A DNA stretch of 64,000 nt, from the sequence record PZ386977.1. One strand, given 5' to 3'. Below, one piece after another: positions 2,122 to 64,000 of the stretch; positions within the stretch are counted from its first letter, which is position 1, and each line of letters opens with the position of its first letter. Under the pieces are notes generated by a model that had not been told where the DNA came from, searched no databases, and saw only the letters and a program-made list of their open reading frames with translations. The position numbers were made by a program, and so were the translations under genes. This DNA is from a phage.

Positions 2122-2454
2122 TCACTTATAAAGACACGGAATAGCTTTATAGTGGCATGTTACGAATTTCTGTTTAATTTCTTTAGGTTGTTTAAGTCCC
2201 AAAGCCACAAATGGATGTGGAACATTTCGAATTTGTCCAACTGGTAGTGGAGTCAAATCACCGACTTCAACAAAACCTTCAGGAACATCAGGACCTACAG
2301 AATGAACTACACATAGTTCAGGAACTTCACCTTGAACACGTTTACCAATCACAAGTCCTGATTCGGTAACTTCTTCATCACCTGCTTGAGCGGGTTCAGA
2401 AACCAGAATGACATATTCACCAACAGCACGAATTGGGAGTTGTACTTCAGACAT
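2122..2454 (-). CDS. 31: gp31 GroES-like co-chaperonin for capsid protein folding
   Basis: 110 aa, [34 protein letters not shown]... matches T4 gp31. Confidence 0.9.
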
Positions 2455-2484
2455 CTTATTTCCTTGTTGTTTGACGATAGATTA

Positions 2485-2509
2485 ATAATACCATACTATT
2501 CGTAAAGCA
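2485..2509 (-). promoter_or_regulatory. MotA-dependent middle promoter (MotA box TGCTTTA, 12-nt spacer, TATTAT -10)
   Basis: Plus taaagca at 2503-2509 and ataata at 2485-2490, upstream of gene 31 start. Confidence 0.6.
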
Positions 2510-2511
2510 TA

Positions 2512-2820
2512 TTACATAAGAAGCAAACGTTCTACCGGAGTACCATCAACCGAAATTACTTTATCAAGGCGGAAAGAACGCCACTGACCTAACTTGGTAT
2601 CGAATGCTCGAACTGATTCACGAGGTTCATAACGAACTTCTGTTGCCGGATTGTTATTTTCATATTTGACTTCAAGTTCATCACGAGAAGCAAACATCGT
2701 GCGAACATCACCATTAGCCTTTTCAAATATAACACAATGAACGCCTACAGACAGAATAGTTTTAATACGTTCACGAAGAACCATAGTTTCTTGTTCAGTT
2801 AAAATCATATTATTCACCAC
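2512..2820 (-). CDS. hypothetical protein (102 aa), 31.1-like position
   Basis: ORF track; overlaps cd stop by 11 nt. Confidence 0.6.
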   Translation of the reverse strand: MVNNMILTEQETMVLRERIKTILSVGVHCVIFEKANGDVRTMFASRDELEVKYENNNPATEVRYEPRESVRAFDTKLGQWRSFRLDKVISVDGTPVERLLLM

Positions 2821-3391
2821 AAAAGTTTCGGATTTGTTCCCAATTCAGAGAACGAAGATTATTACGAGAGTACTGAATTACTTCAATACCGGCTTGTTTA
2901 AGAATGTCTGCCCAATTTTCAGGAGATCTGTCATATAACTCAGCGTATACAACCTTTTTAATACCTGACTGCGTAATAGCTTTAGTGCAATCAGGACATG
3001 GAGAAAGCGTAGTATATAACGTAGCACCTTCAATAGAATTACCTTTACGAGCTGCAAATAAAATTGCATTCAATTCTGCATGTATTTCGTTATTAGCAGA
3101 CCATGCACTATGAGCAGCCCGATGTTCTTTAGCTAAAACAAAATTATCTACCCGTCCAAATGCTGTAGTGCCTTCTTTATGTCCAGCAACGATGGCTGGG
3201 ATTGGTTTATTCTTCAACCAACCATTTTCAGATGCATGTTCGCAACAGTTAACGCCACCTGCAGGTGAACCGTTATATCCAGTAGAGATAATGCGTCCAT
3301 CTTTTTCAATGACGGCACCAACTTTCCATGAACAACATTTTGATTCTTGAGAAATCAGATATGCAATCTGAAGGTATGTGCTAGCTTTCAT
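2810..3391 (-). CDS. cd: dCMP deaminase
   Basis: 193 aa; HAELNAI and PCxxC zinc-binding deaminase motifs; T4 cd size. Confidence 0.9.
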   Translation of the reverse strand: MKASTYLQIAYLISQESKCCSWKVGAVIEKDGRIISTGYNGSPAGGVNCCEHASENGWLKNKPIPAIVAGHKEGTTAFGRVDNFVLAKEHRAAHSAWSANNEIHAELNAILFAARKGNSIEGATLYTTLSPCPDCTKAITQSGIKKVVYAELYDRSPENWADILKQAGIEVIQYSRNNLRSLNWEQIRNFCGE

Positions 3392-4383
3392 TATTGAACC
3401 TTATTAATATAAGTTAACAGCTCTTTAGTTTGTTCCCAACTGATGCACGCATCGGTAACGGAAATGCCATAGGACATATTATCAGAAATTTTTTGATTTC
3501 CTTCATGTAGGAACGATTCTATCATAATTCCTTTGACCAAATCATTAGCTGCTAAATTTTTACCAATACCAATTTGATTGCTATAATGCCCTTCAGCGTT
3601 TGCATGGCTACAGTCAACCATTACATAATGATTCAGACCTACTGCCCTTGCTTTGTTAGAAGCTTCTTGAATATCAGAAGAATGATAGTTCGGGCCGTTG
3701 GTCCCGCCACGCAATACGATATGCGTATTCTGATTACCTTCAGCTTCAACAATGCCTACAGTACCATCGACGTCCATACCCATATACCGATGAGGCCAGG
3801 CGGCACTATACATCGCGTCTGTAGCTACTTTAATAGAACCATTGGTTGCGTTCTTGAAGCCTACGCACATCGGTAGACCTGAAGCAATTTCACGATGTGT
3901 CTGACTTTCAGTCGTACGGGCGCCAATAGCAACCCATGAGAAAATACCAGAAAGATACTTAATCGTGAATGGGTCTAATACTTCAGTTGCTAATGGAAGT
4001 CCCATACGTAGAAGTTTACGACACAATGTTCGTGCAACTATAAGACCGTGGTTCATATCAAAACTTCCGTCAAGATATGGATCATTTACAAGACCTTTCC
4101 AACCTACGGTAGTTCGAGGCTTTTCAAAATAAACGCGCATCACTAACAGAACATTAGGAAGACGAGTTTGAAGTTCAGCCAGACGTTTGCCGTATTCAAC
4201 AGCAGCAATAGGGTCATGAATTGAACAAGGACCTACAACAATAAGTTTGCGTGGGTCTTCACCATTCATAATCGAATTAACTTGTTCGCGATGAGAAGCC
4301 ACTTGTGATGCGTAAGCTTCCGACAAAGGAATAATCTCAGCCAGTTCTTTTGGAGAAATAAGTTTTCCGACGACAGGTAACAT
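3391..4383 (-). CDS. 3-deoxy-D-arabino-heptulosonate-7-phosphate (DAHP) synthase, class I (AroG/AroF-like)
   Basis: 330 aa; LIVVGPCSIHD, VMRVYFEKPRTTVGWKGL, IGARTTESQ, GFKN motifs as in E. coli AroG; stop overlaps cd start; AAGGA SD. Confidence 0.85.
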   Translation of the reverse strand: MLPVVGKLISPKELAEIIPLSEAYASQVASHREQVNSIMNGEDPRKLIVVGPCSIHDPIAAVEYGKRLAELQTRLPNVLLVMRVYFEKPRTTVGWKGLVNDPYLDGSFDMNHGLIVARTLCRKLLRMGLPLATEVLDPFTIKYLSGIFSWVAIGARTTESQTHREIASGLPMCVGFKNATNGSIKVATDAMYSAAWPHRYMGMDVDGTVGIVEAEGNQNTHIVLRGGTNGPNYHSSDIQEASNKARAVGLNHYVMVDCSHANAEGHYSNQIGIGKNLAANDLVKGIMIESFLHEGNQKISDNMSYGISVTDACISWEQTKELLTYINKVQ

Positions 4384-4503
4384 AACAATCCTTAGGAGAT
4401 ATAAACAGATTCTGATTCAACAATACCTTTAACCGGATTAGACAGGCTAAGTTGGTAGTGCTCAGATTTATGACCATTCTCGATAGTAATGAGATAACTC
4501 TCA

Positions 4504-4740
4504 TTATAGTGTTCCGTATACTCGAGTTGCTTCAACAAGACCATCACTGCCTAATTTAAGATTAGTAATTTGGTCACCATCTTTAGGATTAACGATTACG
4601 AGAAAAGAACGTGGAGATTCTTGAATAACTCGTAATGTTGCATCTTGGAAACGTTCAGACACTTTATTGATGAGTGCTTGAGCAAATTCTTTTACTTTAA
4701 TCTGAAATTCGTGTACTGTAATTGGGTTTTCACTTAGCAT
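4504..4740 (-). CDS. hypothetical protein (78 aa)
   Basis: ORF track; promoter upstream. Confidence 0.55.
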   Translation of the reverse strand: MLSENPITVHEFQIKVKEFAQALINKVSERFQDATLRVIQESPRSFLVIVNPKDGDQITNLKLGSDGLVEATRVYGTL

Positions 4741-4768
4741 TTCTATTTCCTCATTTGTTGGTAGAGTT

Positions 4769-4798
4769 ATAGTATCACAACTCCACCGTGTTGTAAAC
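4769..4798 (-). promoter_or_regulatory. early promoter (GTTTAC -35, TACTAT -10, 18-nt spacer)
   Basis: gtaaac 4793-4798, atagta 4769-4774. Confidence 0.5.
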
Positions 4799-4800
4799 CA

Positions 4801-5076
4801 TTAAATTGCTTTGCATTCAATTTTTTGTGTACCGAAATTGATATCACATTGGATAACTAAATCGCCGTCAAGATCAAATACCACTATGACGTGTGCAGAC
4901 CCAGGGAGAAGAGTAATAGCAATAGAATCTACTTGGTCTGGGAGCAAAGCATTGAGTACATGAGTTAGTTGAGCATGAACTCTGAGTTCGGCTGCATTAT
5001 CAAGCACTTCAAACATATTATTAGCAATAATCTGACTGAAGACTACCTTTACAATTTCAGAATAAGTTGGGAACAT
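4801..5076 (-). CDS. hypothetical protein (91 aa)
   Basis: ORF track. Confidence 0.55.
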   Translation of the reverse strand: MFPTYSEIVKVVFSQIIANNMFEVLDNAAELRVHAQLTHVLNALLPDQVDSIAITLLPGSAHVIVVFDLDGDLVIQCDINFGTQKIECKAI

Positions 5077-5083
5077 AATTACC

Positions 5084-5308
5084 TCAGTGTACAGTATTTA
5101 CTTTAACTCGAACAACAAATCGCTCGGTCGGTTCACCTACAGGAACAAACTCTACATGATATTCGCCTTTGTAACGAGTATTCAGATCATTACGAATTCC
5201 TGCGAGTTTGTTAATTAATGTAGGACTCATATTAAGTCCCACTAGTTTACGAAGCATTTTGTATGCTTCATCTTCGATTTCATGATGTTTATCGTACATA
5301 GTTTTCAT
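5084..5308 (-). CDS. hypothetical protein (74 aa)
   Basis: ORF track. Confidence 0.55.
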   Translation of the reverse strand: MKTMYDKHHEIEDEAYKMLRKLVGLNMSPTLINKLAGIRNDLNTRYKGEYHVEFVPVGEPTERFVVRVKVNTVH

Positions 5309-5479
5309 TTAACCATTCAATTGCCTGGTCGACGTTATCAAATATACCACCGTCCAAACGTTCTTCATGCTCATAGTCCAGCACATCAATACCGAACTGT
5401 CCATTTACTAAAGGCCAGGCAACAAACAAATATTCTTTATGCCGTTCAATGGCCTCAATCACTTCATATAATCGTTTCA

Positions 5480-5480
<1 letters not shown>
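5289..5480 (-). CDS. hypothetical protein (63 aa)
   Basis: ORF track; abuts pseT stop. Confidence 0.5.
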
Positions 5481-6566
<1,086 letters not shown>

Positions 6567-6567
<1 letters not shown>

Positions 6568-6866
6568 TATTTTATTCCTAAGAAAATTTCAAGAATACGA
6601 ATGTTATGCTCGCGCCGGTCTTTATTAATTTCAGCAACGTTTTTATTAATTGACGTACTTCTAACGTTTGAAGAAATAAATTTAATCATATGACTTTTGA
6701 GTTGTTGCAAATCCAACCCTTTTTCTTTAGCAGCTTTACGAAGAGCTTTACCTGCTTCATCTAGCGCCTTTGCTGCATCTTTGTCATAATTGCCAAGTGA
6801 CATTCCGCGACAGATATCAATATACTCATCAGACCGTTTGATGTAATTCTCTAGTAATGTTTTCAT
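6567..6866 (-). CDS. hypothetical protein (99 aa)
   Basis: ORF track; promoter upstream. Confidence 0.55.
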
Positions 6867-8270: not shown

Positions 8271-8300
8271 AATTTTCTCCTCGTGTTGTTGATAAAAACC

Positions 8301-8330
8301 ATAGTAACACCATCCTTGGTGTTTGTAAAC
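8301..8330 (-). promoter_or_regulatory. early promoter (GTTTAC -35, TACTAT -10)
   Basis: gtaaac 8325-8330, atagta 8301-8306. Confidence 0.55.
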
Positions 8331-8332
8331 CG

Positions 8333-9466
<1,134 letters not shown>

Positions 9467-9483
9467 TCAGTTAGTTTTTTTAA

Positions 9484-9513
9484 ATTGTACCACAATCCTT
9501 GTGGTATGTAAAC
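9484..9513 (-). promoter_or_regulatory. early promoter (GTTTAC -35, TACAAT -10)
   Basis: gtaaac 9508-9513, attgta 9484-9489; overlaps 3' end of denA. Confidence 0.5.
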
Positions 9514-9923
9514 TACTTTTTCTTATGTTGGATATTCCAAGGCGGGTTGAACTTTTTGATAAAAAGCGGTTCTTCAAGGTCCATTGTTGCGATGGTCATT
9601 GAACCAAGTTCGTTGGTGACTGAAAGGTCAAAACATTGGCGGGCCCAGAATTCAACCTTTTTGCCTTGCATTAAGGCATCCAAAATCATAAGTGATTTTC
9701 TTGAATCTGAAGTCTGGTCTTTTCGATTTATGGCTGTTCGATAATAGTTAATACGTTTCTTTAAATTCTTGGTTTTACCAATATACACAAGTTCGTCATC
9801 TATAGCAATAGCATATATGACATTTTTCTTATTAGGGACATCAACTGTTTTAATTGTTGCATCTTCTAATAGCTCCAATTCTGTATATTTAATAAAGGAA
9901 TATTCGGCGGCGATATCTTTCAT
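9513..9923 (-). CDS. denA: endonuclease II (GIY-YIG family)
   Basis: 136 aa; VIYAIAIDDELVYIGKTKNLKKRINYYR GIY-YIG motif; near-identical to recalled T4 DenA. Confidence 0.9.
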   Translation of the reverse strand: MKDIAAEYSFIKYTELELLEDATIKTVDVPNKKNVIYAIAIDDELVYIGKTKNLKKRINYYRTAINRKDQTSDSRKSLMILDALMQGKKVEFWARQCFDLSVTNELGSMTIATMDLEEPLFIKKFNPPWNIQHKKK

Positions 9924-9949
9924 AATAAAGTGGGACCGAAGTCCCGTCC

Positions 9950-11128
9950 TTAGAAATATTTTTTGTATGAATTGATTACATTTTGGTCTACATCATTATC
10001 AATTTGTGCTACAAGATAAGAACTGATTTCAACTTCCTGAGGAGCGGCTTGAACTAAATCAGAGTTCAGGTATTCACGAATCCAAGGATACGGATGCTTG
10101 GTCGGAGCATCAGTGATTGGGCATGGCAACCCGCACTGTTTCATACGAGACACAGTCAAGTAATCAACAAAAGCACACATACTTTGCGTATTGATACCTG
10201 GACATGTACCATCTTTAAAGAGGTGTGCAGCCCATTCCTTCTCTTGACTATTTACTTCCATAAAAATGTCAACTGCTTCTTGTTCACATTCTTTAGCAAT
10301 TTGAACCCACTCATCGCCATCAGTACCAGATTGAAGTTGACGGATAATGTACTGAGTACCCTTGAGGTGGAGTTGTTCGTCACGAGCAATGAACTTCATA
10401 ATCTTTGCATTACCTTCCATAATTTCCATATTTTTATGGAAGTTGAAAGTACAAGCAAAAGATACATAAAAACGAATAGCTTCCAGGGCATTGATAACGT
10501 GAAGACAGAGATAAAGCGACTTCATCAGGTCTCGTTTACATTCTTCCAAATGAGTGAGACTGTTTGAATATGCTTCTAAATCATATTCATTTTCGGAAAA
10601 ACATTTAAAAATTTCTTTAGCATTTTCCCATTCACGTGTTTTAACCAGAACATCATCGTAATATTTACCTATTGATTCAGCTCGTTTCATGATTGCTTCG
10701 TCTAATACAATCTCATCAAATACCTTAGATGGGTCTGTATAAAGATTTCGCATAATATGAGTATATGAACGAGAGTGAATAGTTTCACTGAATGTCCATG
10801 TTGCAACCCATGTATCTAATGAAGGGTCAGAAATAAGTGCCATAAGTACCGCAGATGGGGCCCTGCCTTGGATAGAATCTAATAATGATTGATACTTAAG
10901 ATTGTTTGTAAAGATGTCCTGTTGGAACTGAGGAAGCTTATTGAACTGCGCAGAGTCCAACATCAAGTTTACCTCTTCTGGGCGCCAGAAAAACGACAAT
11001 TGCTTTTCAATAAGTTCTTCAAAAACTTTATGTCGCTGAATATCATAACGTGCGAGGCCAAGACCAGAACCAAAGAACATCGGTTCATTCAAAACATCGA
11101 CTTGTTGCGTGTTAAAAACTGTACTCAT
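9950..11128 (-). CDS. nrdB: ribonucleotide reductase small subunit, uninterrupted
   Basis: 392 aa contiguous ORF; di-iron ligand context (EEVNLM..., RDEQLH), position after nrdA. Confidence 0.9.
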   Translation of the reverse strand: MSTVFNTQQVDVLNEPMFFGSGLGLARYDIQRHKVFEELIEKQLSFFWRPEEVNLMLDSAQFNKLPQFQQDIFTNNLKYQSLLDSIQGRAPSAVLMALISDPSLDTWVATWTFSETIHSRSYTHIMRNLYTDPSKVFDEIVLDEAIMKRAESIGKYYDDVLVKTREWENAKEIFKCFSENEYDLEAYSNSLTHLEECKRDLMKSLYLCLHVINALEAIRFYVSFACTFNFHKNMEIMEGNAKIMKFIARDEQLHLKGTQYIIRQLQSGTDGDEWVQIAKECEQEAVDIFMEVNSQEKEWAAHLFKDGTCPGINTQSMCAFVDYLTVSRMKQCGLPCPITDAPTKHPYPWIREYLNSDLVQAAPQEVEISSYLVAQIDNDVDQNVINSYKKYF

Positions 11129-40017: not shown

Positions 40018-41118
40018 TTACGCTGTGAAGATTTTATCCCACATCGCAACAACTGCATCTCGGTTATACTTCTTCCATACTGCTTCAGCACGTTTAACTC
40101 TAGCTTCGTATGTGTCAGTGAATTCTAATACAGCTTTTGTGTAAAGCGCAACTACTTCTTTCTTAGGAGTAGAGGAATCAATTTCTACACGCACAGTATC
40201 TGGGTCATATTCGAATGTCGCGTGCGGATAATCCTTAAAAACTAACTGAATCACAGGGACACCTTTAGAGATGGCTTCAATAGAACTATTCTCTACTGTA
40301 CCTGTGTCAGGACACGTATTGATAAGTGCTTTAGCTGTTTTAAGACGTTCCATGATTTCACTGTGTGGAGCATCAATAATAACAGGATATTTAGCTGGCG
40401 GTGCCCATTTACTAGGACAGTATCCTGCACCGTTTTCGCCTAGTGCTTTAATCGCTTCAAGAGCAACATCAGTACGACGCATCTTAGTGTCATAACGTTG
40501 AGCACTAATAATCAGATCAGTCGCTGGAAGAACTTCAGGTTTCTCATTCAAACAAATAACCGGATAATCTTCGGCTTCAAACAACGGATTTGCTCGCCAA
40601 TAATCATAATCAATTTTGTCAGTCAGACCTGAAGTCATATAACAATATTTGCGTTCAAATTCACGGAAGGCTTTAGTAGGAGCATAACTCTTGCCACCAT
40701 TCTTATGAATTTGAATAGTCTGGTCCCAAATTTGAACAATGCCACGAGATACCGGTTCAAATGGTGTTGCCATAAAATTCTTATGAACTTTAGAGAGACC
40801 TGCGTCTTTAATTGCCTGAACGGTTAGTTTGGTCGGTTCCATTGTAACAACGAAATCGTACTCATTGATGCCGGCTAGTTCAACAATCTTACGAGCCATA
40901 GTATAACTCATACCTAGACTGAATTTAGTCAGACGACCAACAGGATGATGATTAACCTTCCAGTCACCAAACGTGTCATTATCAAAGCCGATATAATCAA
41001 TATCAGCACCGATGGACACAAGATATTTCAACACATTTAAATGTACCGCTTCAAGACCACCTTGTACACGTTCTGGGTTAAATGGGACTGCGCGAGATGG
41101 GATAAACATAACTTTCAT
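40018..41118 (-). CDS. putative GT-B glycosyltransferase
   Basis: 366 aa; C-terminal ...GTVENSSIEAISKGVPVI... resembles the nucleotide-sugar-binding E-x-E region of GT-B enzymes; not an obvious T4 alpha- or beta-gt homologue. Confidence 0.5.
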   Translation of the reverse strand: MKVMFIPSRAVPFNPERVQGGLEAVHLNVLKYLVSIGADIDYIGFDNDTFGDWKVNHHPVGRLTKFSLGMSYTMARKIVELAGINEYDFVVTMEPTKLTVQAIKDAGLSKVHKNFMATPFEPVSRGIVQIWDQTIQIHKNGGKSYAPTKAFREFERKYCYMTSGLTDKIDYDYWRANPLFEAEDYPVICLNEKPEVLPATDLIISAQRYDTKMRRTDVALEAIKALGENGAGYCPSKWAPPAKYPVIIDAPHSEIMERLKTAKALINTCPDTGTVENSSIEAISKGVPVIQLVFKDYPHATFEYDPDTVRVEIDSSTPKKEVVALYTKAVLEFTDTYEARVKRAEAVWKKYNRDAVVAMWDKIFTA

Positions 41119-61331: not shown

Positions 61332-61880
61332 TTAACGAGCCCATTTGATGATTTCTGTAATCAAACCATTACGTTCGCTTGCATTAAATCCTATAACTTT
61401 GTTAGCACCATCATGATTAAGTAATTGATACGTTTGGATTTTGTTATGAATTGCAAACTCTTCAAAATGTGAAATGACTGTATTAAAACCGAATGAAGAC
61501 AAAGTAATAAGGTCGTCTTCAAAACTTTCAGTCATTTCGTTACGTGTTAAAATAATTGTGAACACATCATGGTTTTGGCAAAGACGAACATAATCCTGCT
61601 CATAAACATCAAGAACAGAGTCCGCATCTTGTCGAATACGTCCATAAACCCAGTTACTAATATATCCACGGTCTAACAGATAAATCTTAGTAGGGTCTAA
61701 ATAATTCAACATCGTTTCGAAACAGCCAACTTCATTTCTAGACTTAACATCGAAACGTCCATCAACTGTTCGTTTAGGGAAATCAATCTTTACATATCTT
61801 TCACTAATTTCCATTATGTCATTAATGAAAGTTGTTTTACCAGCATTATCCGGGCCATCTACTAAAATAATTTTAGCCAT
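61332..61880 (-). CDS. P-loop nucleotide/nucleoside kinase-like protein (TMK/dNK fold)
   Basis: 182 aa; Walker A VDGPDNAGKTT and LLDRGYISNWVYG resembling the thymidylate-kinase DRY...S..AY motif; GAGGA SD. Confidence 0.55.
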   Translation of the reverse strand: MAKIILVDGPDNAGKTTFINDIMEISERYVKIDFPKRTVDGRFDVKSRNEVGCFETMLNYLDPTKIYLLDRGYISNWVYGRIRQDADSVLDVYEQDYVRLCQNHDVFTIILTRNEMTESFEDDLITLSSFGFNTVISHFEEFAIHNKIQTYQLLNHDGANKVIGFNASERNGLITEIIKWAR

Positions 61881-61881
61881 T

Positions 61882-62781
61882 TTATTCCTCGATTACGACA
61901 TCTTCGTATTTAGGTATATTATACGGTGAAGAAATTAAAGCATTAAAGTAGATGAACTCACCAAGACCTGGATGGAATACTTCTTCAGGATTTTCGAAAT
62001 ATTGAATCTTCGGACGTCCTTTAAGAATTTGATAGTACTCAGTTTTAGTTGGATTAAAAATTCGAATCAGCGCTTCTTCAGGATACTTATTTCTGTCGAA
62101 ACTATTATTTGGATCAGTTATATAAAGCGGTTGACCTAATTGAATTGCGCATTCAACCACTTGTTCAAAACGATAGCATGGGTCACTAATTCGAAATGGA
62201 TGAAAAATACCATCTAGATGAATAGGAGCCAAATCACCTACAAGACGCTGCATGACGGAAGGACATATAACTTTCTGCGTTACGATAATCTTATTACCAT
62301 CTGCACCTGCGTTAACCAGCACTTCTTTTTGACGTTCATTCAACACAGTAGTTTGAAGTGAACGATTAACAGACAACATGTCGGTTTTTAAGAATTCATC
62401 AATATAAAAACGTGGTTTATTAGGGTCTGCAGTGATATTGAAATTGAATTCTACGTCAAAAGCGCCATCATATCCAGTGATATCTGTGATTAGAAAATCA
62501 CAATCATAATAAGCAATTAATGAATCAACCACAAATTCATTTTCAGACCAGAAATATTTACGAGTGTTATACGCGTTATCTTTATACCATAATGGAACAA
62601 ACTTAAATTCTGGGAAAAGACGTTCACATTCTTTAATATCAGATGCATTACGTGGATATGTAATCACATCACCTGGATTAGCACGGTGCAAATGAAGTTG
62701 GAAGTTGCCATCCTTAAGGATGGCATACTGTCCAGTTTCATAAGACCGCATACTCAAGATTGGTACGCGGAAAATAGCCAT
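61882..62781 (-). CDS. hypothetical protein (299 aa) in the slot where T4 has beta-glucosyltransferase
   Basis: ORF track; start overlaps next gene stop; no recognised motif. Confidence 0.55.
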   Translation of the reverse strand: MAIFRVPILSMRSYETGQYAILKDGNFQLHLHRANPGDVITYPRNASDIKECERLFPEFKFVPLWYKDNAYNTRKYFWSENEFVVDSLIAYYDCDFLITDITGYDGAFDVEFNFNITADPNKPRFYIDEFLKTDMLSVNRSLQTTVLNERQKEVLVNAGADGNKIIVTQKVICPSVMQRLVGDLAPIHLDGIFHPFRISDPCYRFEQVVECAIQLGQPLYITDPNNSFDRNKYPEEALIRIFNPTKTEYYQILKGRPKIQYFENPEEVFHPGLGEFIYFNALISSPYNIPKYEDVVIEE

Positions 62782-63497
62782 TAGTCAAGGAATCCTTTAA
62801 CATAATCAAAATCACGTTCAAACACATGGGCACTTACCATGGTATGAGTATAATCACCAACTTCTACACCGCATTCGTTAGCGATATAATGAAGTAATTT
62901 TCCTTGGAGATAAAAATCCAACTGCATAACAACAGCACAGTTCTGAGAACGCATATGACAGTGGGTATAAAGCTTACCATCACGAATATAATAAGTTACT
63001 GAGTCAGTACATGGATATTCAAGTGTTTCGTCCGAATCAAGCAAAGCCTGATCAGAACTTTCTAGAATTTGGAACACAACTCTTCGAGAGTTAGGTTTTT
63101 CTTTAAGTTCTTTTAGAAGAGTTGGTAATTGGGCCGCAATGCGAGGACCATAGAAAGTGTTGAAGTTCGCCGGCAAAACATCTGATTTTGGTTTAGAAAT
63201 AAATTTAGCGACATTAGGATATGCCTTAAACGCTTCTTCTGCGTTGGTACCACCAGAAATCATAAACTTCCAGAAGTCTTCGGCATATTCATAAGAGATG
63301 CGGTTAATACGTGGGTCGGTCATTTTGAATGATGACGGATTGTCAACAACTACTGTCATGGACCCAATTTCATTACAACGTCCAATACGAGAATCAGTTA
63401 CGAATTCCGGGTTTTCTAAAATTTCACGATTGACTGCTTTAAATGCGGTTTGAAAATCTGCGGCTTTGATATATTTCATTGTGTTATGTTTTCCCAT
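62781..63497 (-). CDS. 42: thymidylate-synthase-superfamily enzyme at the gene 42 position (dCMP hydroxymethylase-like)
   Basis: 238 aa; PNSRR phosphate-binding motif and catalytic-Cys region YPCTDSVTYYIRDGK...MRSQN; GAGG SD. Confidence 0.65.
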   Translation of the reverse strand: MGKHNTMKYIKAADFQTAFKAVNREILENPEFVTDSRIGRCNEIGSMTVVVDNPSSFKMTDPRINRISYEYAEDFWKFMISGGTNAEEAFKAYPNVAKFISKPKSDVLPANFNTFYGPRIAAQLPTLLKELKEKPNSRRVVFQILESSDQALLDSDETLEYPCTDSVTYYIRDGKLYTHCHMRSQNCAVVMQLDFYLQGKLLHYIANECGVEVGDYTHTMVSAHVFERDFDYVKGFLD

Positions 63498-63539: not shown

Positions 63540-63779
63540 TTATTTGAATTTCTTGGCAGTGTTGATATACCGTAAAGCTTCAGCATCGATACTTCCAAGA
63601 ACACTATGAAGAAATGCATCAGCGTAGTATTCCAATTGAACAGGTTCTTTAATCACTTTAGCCGCTTTGGTTTCAAACAGGCCCATAAGGGCCTTTTTAA
63701 GAATTTGTTCGTTAGTGTTCAGTTTAATAGTCAAAATCTCTTCATTAAGTTGATGATTAAAAGTTTTTCTAGAAATCAT
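63540..63779 (-). CDS. hypothetical protein (79 aa)
   Basis: ORF track. Confidence 0.5.
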   Translation of the reverse strand: MISRKTFNHQLNEEILTIKLNTNEQILKKALMGLFETKAAKVIKEPVQLEYYADAFLHSVLGSIDAEALRYINTAKKFK

Positions 63780-63970
63780 TCCGGGTACCTCAGAGCGTCA
63801 TCAGAGTTAGTTATATCAATAATAGATATAGAGTTTTCTGCTAACCCGTTTTTAGATAATTGACGTTTATAATATCTTTCACAATATGTACACGTTGATC
63901 CGCAGATTTCATTAGCACAATCAAAATCTGGATGTCTGAACCACCTTTTTTCTAAAAAGCCATCTAACAA
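63776..63970 (-). CDS. small Cys-rich protein (64 aa), possible zinc binding
   Basis: CANEICGSTCTYCERYY cluster of five Cys. Confidence 0.45.
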   Translation of the reverse strand: MLDGFLEKRWFRHPDFDCANEICGSTCTYCERYYKRQLSKNGLAENSISIIDITNSDDALRYPE

Positions 63971-64000
63971 AGAGGTTTCAATATTTACTGTATGTGAAAA

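Follow-up and report, generated by a model that had tools for sequence, protein, structure and literature searches.

Enzymes of the peptidase U32 family hydroxylate RNA and quinones by a chemistry that depends on the shikimate pathway. RlhA forms 5-hydroxycytidine in 23S rRNA, a modification that is abolished in aroB, aroD, aroE, aroA, aroC and pheA tyrA mutants (PMC5727448). TrhP generates 5-hydroxyuridine in tRNA through a prephenate-dependent, O2-independent reaction, for which the O2-dependent TrhO serves as backup (PMC6599085), and 18O labelling identified prephenate as the oxygen donor of UbiU/V, with phenylpyruvate as the proposed by-product (PMC10990095). A hydroxylated pyrimidine also occurs in phages of the genus Mosigvirus, whose modified base is arabinosyl-5-hydroxycytosine; in this system, 5-hydroxy-dCMP is made by gp48 of RB69, and UDP-arabinose is produced via arabinose-5-phosphate isomerase, AfhE and AfhF (PMC6024577, PMC13326640). 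Here we analyze a 64,000-nucleotide stretch of a Mosigvirus genome (record PZ386977.1; the whole stretch is referred to as the window), which encodes a DAHP synthase (DAHPS; DAHP, 3-deoxy-D-arabinoheptulosonate 7-phosphate) at 3391..4383 on the minus strand and, at its far end, the C-terminal part of a U32-family protein. A deregulated DAHPS that supplies prephenate for U32-dependent hydroxylation would, in our judgment, best explain the whole of the observations, a reading to which we lean only slightly.

At 330 amino acids, the window DAHPS is a type I-alpha enzyme whose N-terminus is short and whose allosteric site is remodelled. It matches Pfam DAHP_synth_1 (PF00793) with 251 bits (E 1e-74; cutoff 25.5), NCBIfam TIGR00034 aroFGH with 427 bits (cutoff 173) and PRK12755 with 454 bits (cutoff 343), falls in PHROG 5045 (E 9e-182), and has E. 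coli AroF as its closest solved structure (6agm, E 1e-104). Compared with E. coli AroF, AroG and AroH (6agm, 1kfl), the phage enzyme has the same fold family and 43-51% identity, and the residues contacting the metal, phosphoenolpyruvate (PEP) and erythrose-4-phosphate (E4P) are identical. In the alignment, the metal ligands C61, H268, E302 and D326 (AroG numbering) are conserved in the window enzyme and invariant in every phage homolog, and the same invariance holds for the PEP and E4P residues R92, K97, P98, R99, T100, G163, A164, R165, K186 and R234. The window motif reads EKPRTTVGWKG, which corresponds to the E4P-type KPR(T/S) signature and not to the KANRS of 3-deoxy-D-manno-octulosonate 8-phosphate (KDO8P) synthase; identity as a KDO8P synthase is rejected on this motif and the profile scores. 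Judging from its residues, the phage enzyme should be catalytically competent in condensing PEP and E4P to DAHP, and it is almost certainly a true DAHP synthase. The first-pass annotation, which read a 330-aa class I DAHP synthase at this position from the letters of the sequence, is borne out by these profile scores and catalytic residues.

Regulation is where the phage enzyme departs from its bacterial relatives. In AroG, the side chains of Q151 and S180 bind the main chain of the inhibitor, and the substitutions P150L, S180F, L175D and F209A yield feedback-resistant enzymes (PMC9529685). The allosteric comparison covered 27 phage-clade proteins, set against 98 bacterial proteins for each residue and 99 non-phage-clade sequences for the length of the N-terminus. 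The position equivalent to P150 is occupied by proline in 90 of 98 bacterial proteins and by isoleucine in 26 of 27 phage-clade proteins. Q151 is invariant in the bacterial set (98/98) and replaced by lysine or arginine throughout the phage clade (27/27), while S180 and F209, each conserved in 97 of 98 bacterial proteins, are replaced in all 27 phage-clade proteins by proline and tyrosine, respectively. The region N-terminal of GPCSIH measures 46-50 residues in 27/27 phage-clade proteins, versus at least 56 in the 99 non-phage-clade sequences, and the N-terminal regulatory segment (AroG D6, D7) is absent from the phage DAHPS. The short N-terminus is real: the open reading frame (ORF) was called at its longest possible extent, with the earliest start codon following a stop, and cannot be extended upstream. 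The window enzyme also scores below the equivalog cutoffs of AroG (363 versus 568) and AroH (386 versus 463), so that it has neither the isozyme score nor the regulatory segment and inhibitor contacts of a feedback-regulated isozyme. From the lost N-terminal segment and the replaced inhibitor-contact residues, we infer that the phage DAHPS is quite probably insensitive to feedback by Phe and Tyr.

Relative to E. coli AroF, AroG and AroH, the phage enzyme thus has an N-terminus that is 9-11 residues shorter, carries P150I, Q151K, S180P and F209Y, and belongs to a separate phage clade. The changes fall at the same positions as those of engineered feedback-resistant AroG and AroF (P150L, S180F, D146N, L175D; PMC9529685), from which they differ in being natural, multiple, conserved in 27 clade proteins and accompanied by an N-terminal deletion, insensitivity being a prediction in the phage case. 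One member of the phage clade, P0022 (332 aa, encoded on a 7-kb contig of the European Nucleotide Archive), reads DPYTPKYL and retains Pro150 together with Lys151 and Pro180; it is perhaps a transitional form.

DAHPS was detected by tblastn in 213 phage records, about 199 of which belong to the Straboviridae clade; here and below, hosts were assigned by the host name in the record. All 213 matches are full-length and consist of one aligned piece each. The window protein is 99.7% identical to the copies in Shigella phage Shf125875, phiC120, PhAPEC2 and some 140 further records of Mosigvirus, 58-77% identical to those of Kanagawavirus, Kagamiyamavirus, Marfavirus, Winklervirus and Bragavirus, and 55% identical to that of a Providencia phage group (P0030); the gene lies between cd.2 and cd in 6/6 genera examined. 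In a phylogeny with bacterial DAHPS, a comparison that the first-pass annotation had called for, the phage proteins form a monophyletic clade (87% neighbor-joining bootstrap), and the nearest bacterial proteins, which come from assorted phyla, reach just 50-54% identity. Between genera, dN/dS is 0.11-0.24, and the GC content at third codon positions (30%) is the same as in adjacent phage genes; within Mosigvirus, dN/dS is about 0.6, from too few substitutions to interpret. By these comparative measures, DAHPS is evidently an old, vertically inherited gene under selection and no recent capture from E. coli. It is not new as an annotated gene either: roughly 200 records of T4-like phages already annotate it, those of Mosigvirus usually as phospho-2-dehydro-3-deoxyheptonate aldolase, AroG or AroF. 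What is added here is the evidence for deregulation and a connection to the hypermodification of phage DNA, through a putative hydroxylation step that would depend on prephenate and not on O2.

Several further DAHPS genes lie outside this group. 'Bacteriophage sp.' faecal scaffolds and Acinetobacter MD-2021a contigs were set aside as uninformative; they look bacterial, and their DAHPS proteins have full-length N-termini. Equally uninformative is Aeromonas phage HJ05, which has a DAHPS, with neither U32 nor chorismate mutase found within about 5 kb. Full-length type I-alpha DAHPS genes also occur in dozens of metagenomic giant-virus (Nucleocytoviricota) bins (IMG/VR GVMAG contigs L150, L155-L157 and L160-L213); these are 40-47% identical to the phage DAHPS, and U32 and chorismate mutase are absent within 10 kb of them.

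The U32-family gene of the window, a homolog of RB69 gp50, is represented by its last 74 codons at 63776..64000 on the minus strand and continues past the window end. The RB69 study left gp50 as a 'sugar or heterocycle reductase' with structural matches to a 'collagenase'. The Mosigvirus gp50 homolog matches Pfam Peptidase_U32 (PF01136) with 42 bits (cutoff 22.4), and hhalign relates the phage U32 protein to TrhP, RlhA, UbiU and UbiV with a probability of 96% (E 3e-9). This relationship is resolved by profile comparison only: in pairwise BLAST, phage U32 has no significant match to TrhP or RlhA, and the match to NCBIfam UbiU is very weak (E 9e-4). The residues essential in TrhP (E162, C170 and C177) align to E188, C206 and C212 of phage U32, all three invariant across the phage clade, and the C-terminus contains an additional invariant four-cysteine cluster (CX4CX3CX2C) that lies inside the window at 63776-64000. 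Across genera, phage U32 is 82-89% identical and thus much better conserved than the genes around it (AfhE, 42-73%).

The phage cluster resembles the TrhP/TrhO and UbiU-V/UbiI-H-F pairs in that an O2-dependent flavoenzyme is accompanied by a U32 protein in which the essential glutamate and two cysteines are retained, and 5-hydroxycytidine, the product of RlhA, represents the same base chemistry as the phage modification. Unlike the cellular enzymes, phage U32 forms a distant subfamily with the extra C-terminal cysteine cluster; it would act on deoxynucleotides or DNA at the scale of a whole genome, and the virus itself encodes pathway-entry enzymes. Its family membership and the linked chorismate mutase and DAHPS genes suggest that phage U32 is a putative prephenate-dependent, O2-independent hydroxylase.

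The distribution of U32 tracks that of DAHPS far more closely than that of AfhE does. In total, DAHPS is present in 213 records, U32 in 222 and AfhE in 374. For DAHPS, U32 and AfhE, respectively, the counts are 25/26/25 for Klebsiella, 7/7/7 for Proteus, 4/4/9 for Enterobacter and 125/137/177 for Escherichia; for DAHPS and U32, they are 6/7 for Serratia and 3/3 for Edwardsiella. Acinetobacter phages have 57 AfhE records with neither a phage-clade DAHPS nor U32, Dhakavirus QL01 has AfhE without U32 and without a DAHPS at the cd locus, and the very numerous Tequatroviruses lack DAHPS. The record counts fit an arrangement in which every Straboviridae DAHPS carrier also has U32. U32 without DAHPS is recorded for about 14 Mosigviruses and for phages of Yersinia (6), Shewanella (2) and Pectobacterium (2 records). 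Overall, DAHPS and/or chorismate mutase occurs in about 94% of U32-positive records, and in 0 of about 150 AfhE-positive, U32-negative records, as far as name counts and the records checked extend.

Chorismate mutase provides a second connection between U32 and prephenate. In most U32-bearing Straboviridae, a small gene lies between U32 and the 5-hydroxy-dCMP synthase gene, and in CIP9/Entb_45, PEi20, Pm5461, CHI14 and TG1 this gene matches Pfam CM_2 (PF01817) with 36-47 bits (cutoff 27). Chorismate mutase genes of the AroQ type thus stand beside U32 in Kanagawa-, Winkler-, Braga- and Tegunavirus loci (L025:11170-11406, L031:11140-11394, L033:11131-11499, L035:11384-11782 and L032:11357-11668), and a hidden Markov model built from these phage ORFs has further matches in Kagamiyamavirus (EcS1), Marfavirus-like and other loci. 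Phage chorismate mutase was found in 51 records, several of them already annotated as such, and is present in the DAHPS-less Yersinia, Shewanella and Pectobacterium phages. These AroQ-type genes lack the residue equivalent to Arg51 of E. coli chorismate mutase, so that their activity is a prediction. Tests of cd.2, cd.3 and the additional small ORFs that CHI14, EcS1 and PM2 have next to DAHPS gave no match to chorismate mutase, and these were rejected as candidates. The 79-aa ORF that precedes U32 in map order in the window (63540..63779, minus strand; homolog of RB69 ORF049c) has no Pfam match and belongs to a family distinct from chorismate mutase. Many relatives have a chorismate mutase gene next to this ORF or in its place; in L026, L032, L034 and L038, a member of this family stands in tandem with the chorismate mutase gene as a separate protein.

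Unrelated large phages combine U32 with a different class of DAHPS. Their contigs, which encode DnaE-type polymerases, carry U32 orthologs with 47-58% identity. In four of these (L022, L037, L092 and L103), U32 is adjoined by a type I-beta DAHPS core without regulatory domain, which in L022 scores 216-237 bits with NCBIfam DAHPS models and 63 with KDO8P synthase and has the KPRT motif. In four others (L049, L050, L052 and L054), the DAHPS next to U32, again of type I-beta, is fused at its C-terminus to a chorismate mutase (CM_2) domain. The latter fusion recalls the bifunctional DAHPS-chorismate mutase of the B. subtilis AroA type (PRK12595), from which the large-phage proteins differ in the C-terminal position of the mutase domain and the adjacent U32, and from which the window enzyme differs in being type I-alpha, unfused and without a chorismate mutase in the window. 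The large-phage U32 modules also contain isomerase, AfhE and glycosyltransferase homologs, and a thymidylate-synthase homolog is usually absent within 10 kb; on one 191-kb contig, the U32 module and the DAHPS-chorismate mutase gene lie far apart, as in Mosigvirus. Overall, U32 occurs within 10 kb of 8 of about 36 viral loci with KPRT-type I-beta DAHPS. Shared ancestry can hardly account for non-orthologous DAHPS genes beside the same U32 gene, which suggests a functional association. KDO8P-synthase-like genes of 250-272 aa with the KANRS motif were observed at 29 viral loci (L100-L133); within 10 kb of these, U32 was found at 0/29, and arabinose genes were likewise never near. In two megaphage-like sequences (L019, a 466-kb contig, at 9447-11086, and L020 at 8279-9858), a U32 ortholog directly follows a dCMP deaminase gene and is accompanied by thymidylate kinase, uracil-DNA glycosylase and DnaE-polymerase genes, an arrangement that echoes the coupling of DAHPS to cd and hints at a nucleotide-level substrate.

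Taking the observed identity, integrity, selection, conservation and allosteric remodelling of the DAHPS gene together with its gene associations, we consider prephenate supply for U32 to be its purpose with a confidence at or just above the midpoint. In the proposed mechanism, DAHPS would be made early together with dCMP deaminase and would push carbon into the host shikimate pathway regardless of Phe, Tyr and Trp levels. The host enzymes AroB through AroC would convert DAHP to chorismate, and chorismate would be turned into prephenate by PheA or TyrA of the host or, in relatives, by the phage-encoded mutase. The phage U32 protein, as an Fe-S enzyme, would then take prephenate as its oxygen donor and hydroxylate a substrate without O2, most likely the nucleotide form of cytosine at C5, in a reaction running parallel to the O2-dependent gp48 route as TrhP does to TrhO and UbiU,V to UbiI,H,F. 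Fully substituted phage DNA could thus be built in anoxic hosts. The demand may be considerable: a genome of 169 kb and 37.5% GC contains about 63,000 cytosines, and we estimate that 100-200 progeny need about 10^7 hydroxylations in less than half an hour, which would amount to a substantial fraction of the normal prephenate flux of the cell. This demand would coincide with aromatic amino acids in the rich gut shutting AroG and AroF down. If phenylpyruvate is released as by-product here as well, it could be converted to Phe and inhibit AroG further, which would give the phage a specific reason to maintain a feedback-insensitive enzyme.

Phages with arabinosyl-5-hydroxycytosine replace every cytosine, and their known hydroxylation route requires O2, while their hosts live largely without it. 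If correct, the proposal would explain phage replication in the gut and the presence of a shikimate enzyme inside a nucleotide-metabolism operon, would give RB69 gp50 a function, and would add viral DNA to RNA and quinones as targets of organic oxygen-donor chemistry. DAHPS would then be the first shikimate-pathway auxiliary gene serving DNA hypermodification, and prephenate would for the first time be proposed as an organic oxygen donor acting on DNA precursors. The phage DAHPS is also a natural candidate feedback-resistant enzyme for metabolic engineering. A wider version, which may equally well prove right or wrong, is that many phages of facultative and strict anaerobes run a 'prephenate economy', in which a deregulated DAHPS and/or a chorismate mutase feeds a U32 hydroxylase, and the C5 hydroxyl placed without O2 on cytosine or another pyrimidine anchors DNA glycosylation. 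A literature search returned nothing on phage DAHPS or on phage together with U32 and prephenate; the HY126 study (He et al.), which may discuss gp50, lay outside its reach. The RB69 papers mention neither DAHPS nor chorismate nor U32, and a study of 5-hydroxy-dCMP synthase described known pyrimidine hydroxylation pathways as unrelated to that enzyme and left the U32 gene unmentioned (PMC13326640).

A number of observations weigh against the supply of prephenate by a deregulated DAHPS. The sole demonstrated route to 5-hydroxy-dCMP consists of O2 and the thymidylate-synthase homolog (PMC13326640). The gene is dispensable, because U32 is retained and DAHPS missing in RB69-like Mosigviruses (about 14 records), Tegunaviruses and Pectobacterium phage PM2; cd.2 abuts cd without an intervening DAHPS in JK36, JK42, ECO111 5-P and RB69, amounting to about 14 of 154 Mosigvirus records. 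Dhakaviruses, which lack both U32 and DAHPS, infect E. coli. Within Straboviridae, the pattern is nested, with DAHPS within U32 and U32 within the arabinose genes, so that one gain on one branch could suffice to produce it, and it therefore has no statistical weight alone. The phage chorismate mutase model has no match in the window or in the other Mosigvirus loci L001, L005 and L013, and in the genus of the window, host PheA or TyrA would therefore have to supply the prephenate. Around 28 of the 36 viral loci with type I-beta DAHPS lack U32 within 10 kb, many of these contigs being fragments. Since the substituted allosteric residues are themselves strictly conserved, their fixation could signal a new effector and not lost regulation.

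Among the other explanations, the one that survives best is a general auxiliary metabolic gene, in which additional, unregulated DAHPS would increase the Phe, Tyr and Trp available to phage protein synthesis once host transcription is shut off, without particular ties to DNA modification. Flux through the shikimate pathway is controlled at DAHPS, and an intact, probably deregulated enzyme that is not adjacent to the modification cluster in the window would suit such a role; PHROG 5045 is classed under auxiliary metabolic genes, and the same call in the first-pass annotation was right in kind. This explanation leaves unaccounted for why the gene is absent from Tequatroviruses and from the Dhaka- and Acinetobacter-phage groups and present in nearly all U32-bearing ones. 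It also fits poorly with relatives that add a chorismate mutase beside U32, committing carbon to prephenate and away from Trp, and with unrelated phages that place a different DAHPS class directly beside U32. We regard it as unlikely, with a modest chance of being right.

A supply of chorismate for other cofactors, either quinones or the folate (via p-aminobenzoate) needed by td, frd and the baseplate, appears improbable. In its favor are the presence of frd and td in the same nucleotide-metabolism region as DAHPS and the faint UbiU resemblance of phage U32. Folate, however, acts catalytically, and the amount in the baseplate is tiny. T4 and many relatives have equal folate needs without a DAHPS, and a chorismate mutase would draw chorismate away from p-aminobenzoate and 4-hydroxybenzoate. 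Phage U32, moreover, is located among sugar-activation, glycosyltransferase and dCMP-modifying genes, or beside dCMP deaminase in the megaphage-like contigs, and not with quinone genes.

More doubtful still is a role in sugar-phosphate chemistry, in which the enzyme would either condense PEP with arabinose-5-phosphate in the manner of KDO8P synthase or drain E4P and thereby draw pentose phosphates into UDP-arabinose synthesis. An isomerase of the phage's own provides arabinose-5-phosphate, and every DAHPS-bearing Straboviridae genus examined is arabinosylation-positive, as expected under this view. Motif (KPRT) and equivalog score (aroFGH) nevertheless indicate E4P and not arabinose-5-phosphate as substrate, the published UDP-arabinose route is complete without such an aldolase step, and more than 150 AfhE-positive records lack DAHPS, including those of Acinetobacter, Dhakavirus, Vibrio and RB69 phages, and RB69, JK36 and the Dhakaviruses carry arabinosylation genes without it. 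The viral KANRS-type genes are near U32 or arabinose genes in 0/29 loci. A sugar-phosphate or KDO8P-like role, raised as a speculation in the first-pass annotation, is for these reasons not supported; its broader suggestion of a link to DNA modification holds insofar as DAHPS co-occurs with U32, and with chorismate mutase in relatives, and fails with respect to the sugar-activation genes. A decaying or inert passenger is very improbable, for although some Mosigviruses cleanly lack the gene and the few substitutions within the genus give a dN/dS of about 0.6, DAHPS is full-length in 213/213 records with invariant catalytic residues, a between-genus dN/dS of 0.11-0.24 and synteny kept across six genera.

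Further genes of the arabinosyl-5-hydroxycytosine cluster in the window, all on the minus strand, lie next to U32 and its 79-aa neighbor. They comprise a thymidylate-synthase homolog at 62781..63497, equivalent to the flavin- and O2-dependent 5-hydroxy-dCMP synthase gp48 of RB69; a 299-aa protein at 61882..62781, homologous to RB69 gp46:47 and a putative arabinosyltransferase 1; and a 182-aa P-loop nucleotide kinase at 61332..61880, homologous to RB69 ORF045c. A 366-aa ORF at 40018..41118 on the same strand, without Pfam match, is probably an arabinosyltransferase of the RB69 ORF003c type, given its position next to rIIA.

The DAHPS gene itself is located in a T4-type early nucleotide-metabolism region, as the first-pass annotation had recognized, with the gene order 30.x, rIII, 31, 31.1, cd, [DAHPS], cd.2, cd.3, pseT, alc, rnlA, denA, nrdB, nrdA, td, frd. 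That annotation had also remarked that T4 has only small ORFs in this slot, and the same slot in RB69 and JK36 likewise holds small ORFs only. A promoter and terminator scan of 2400-6600 gave 11 sites, with 12.8 expected by chance, and is uninformative. The intact ORF starts with ATG, preceded by a ribosome-binding region at 4384..4400 (minus strand) in which AAGGA lies 5 nt 5' of the start codon; the upstream neighbor is a cd.2 homolog (DUF7320) at 4504..4740 on the minus strand. Downstream, cd encodes a dCMP deaminase of 193 aa at 2810..3391 on the same strand. The TAA stop of DAHPS (3393-3391) and the ATG of cd (3391-3389) have base 3391 in common, reading 5'-TAATG-3' on the minus strand, and this one-base overlap agrees with the translational coupling that had been proposed for the pair. 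In EcS1, CHI14 and Proteus PM2 (L008:4983-5318, L010:4998-5339 and L011:4957-5516), one or two extra ORFs of 91-113 aa, without significant family match, occupy the gap between DAHPS and cd and break the translational coupling of the Mosigvirus type.

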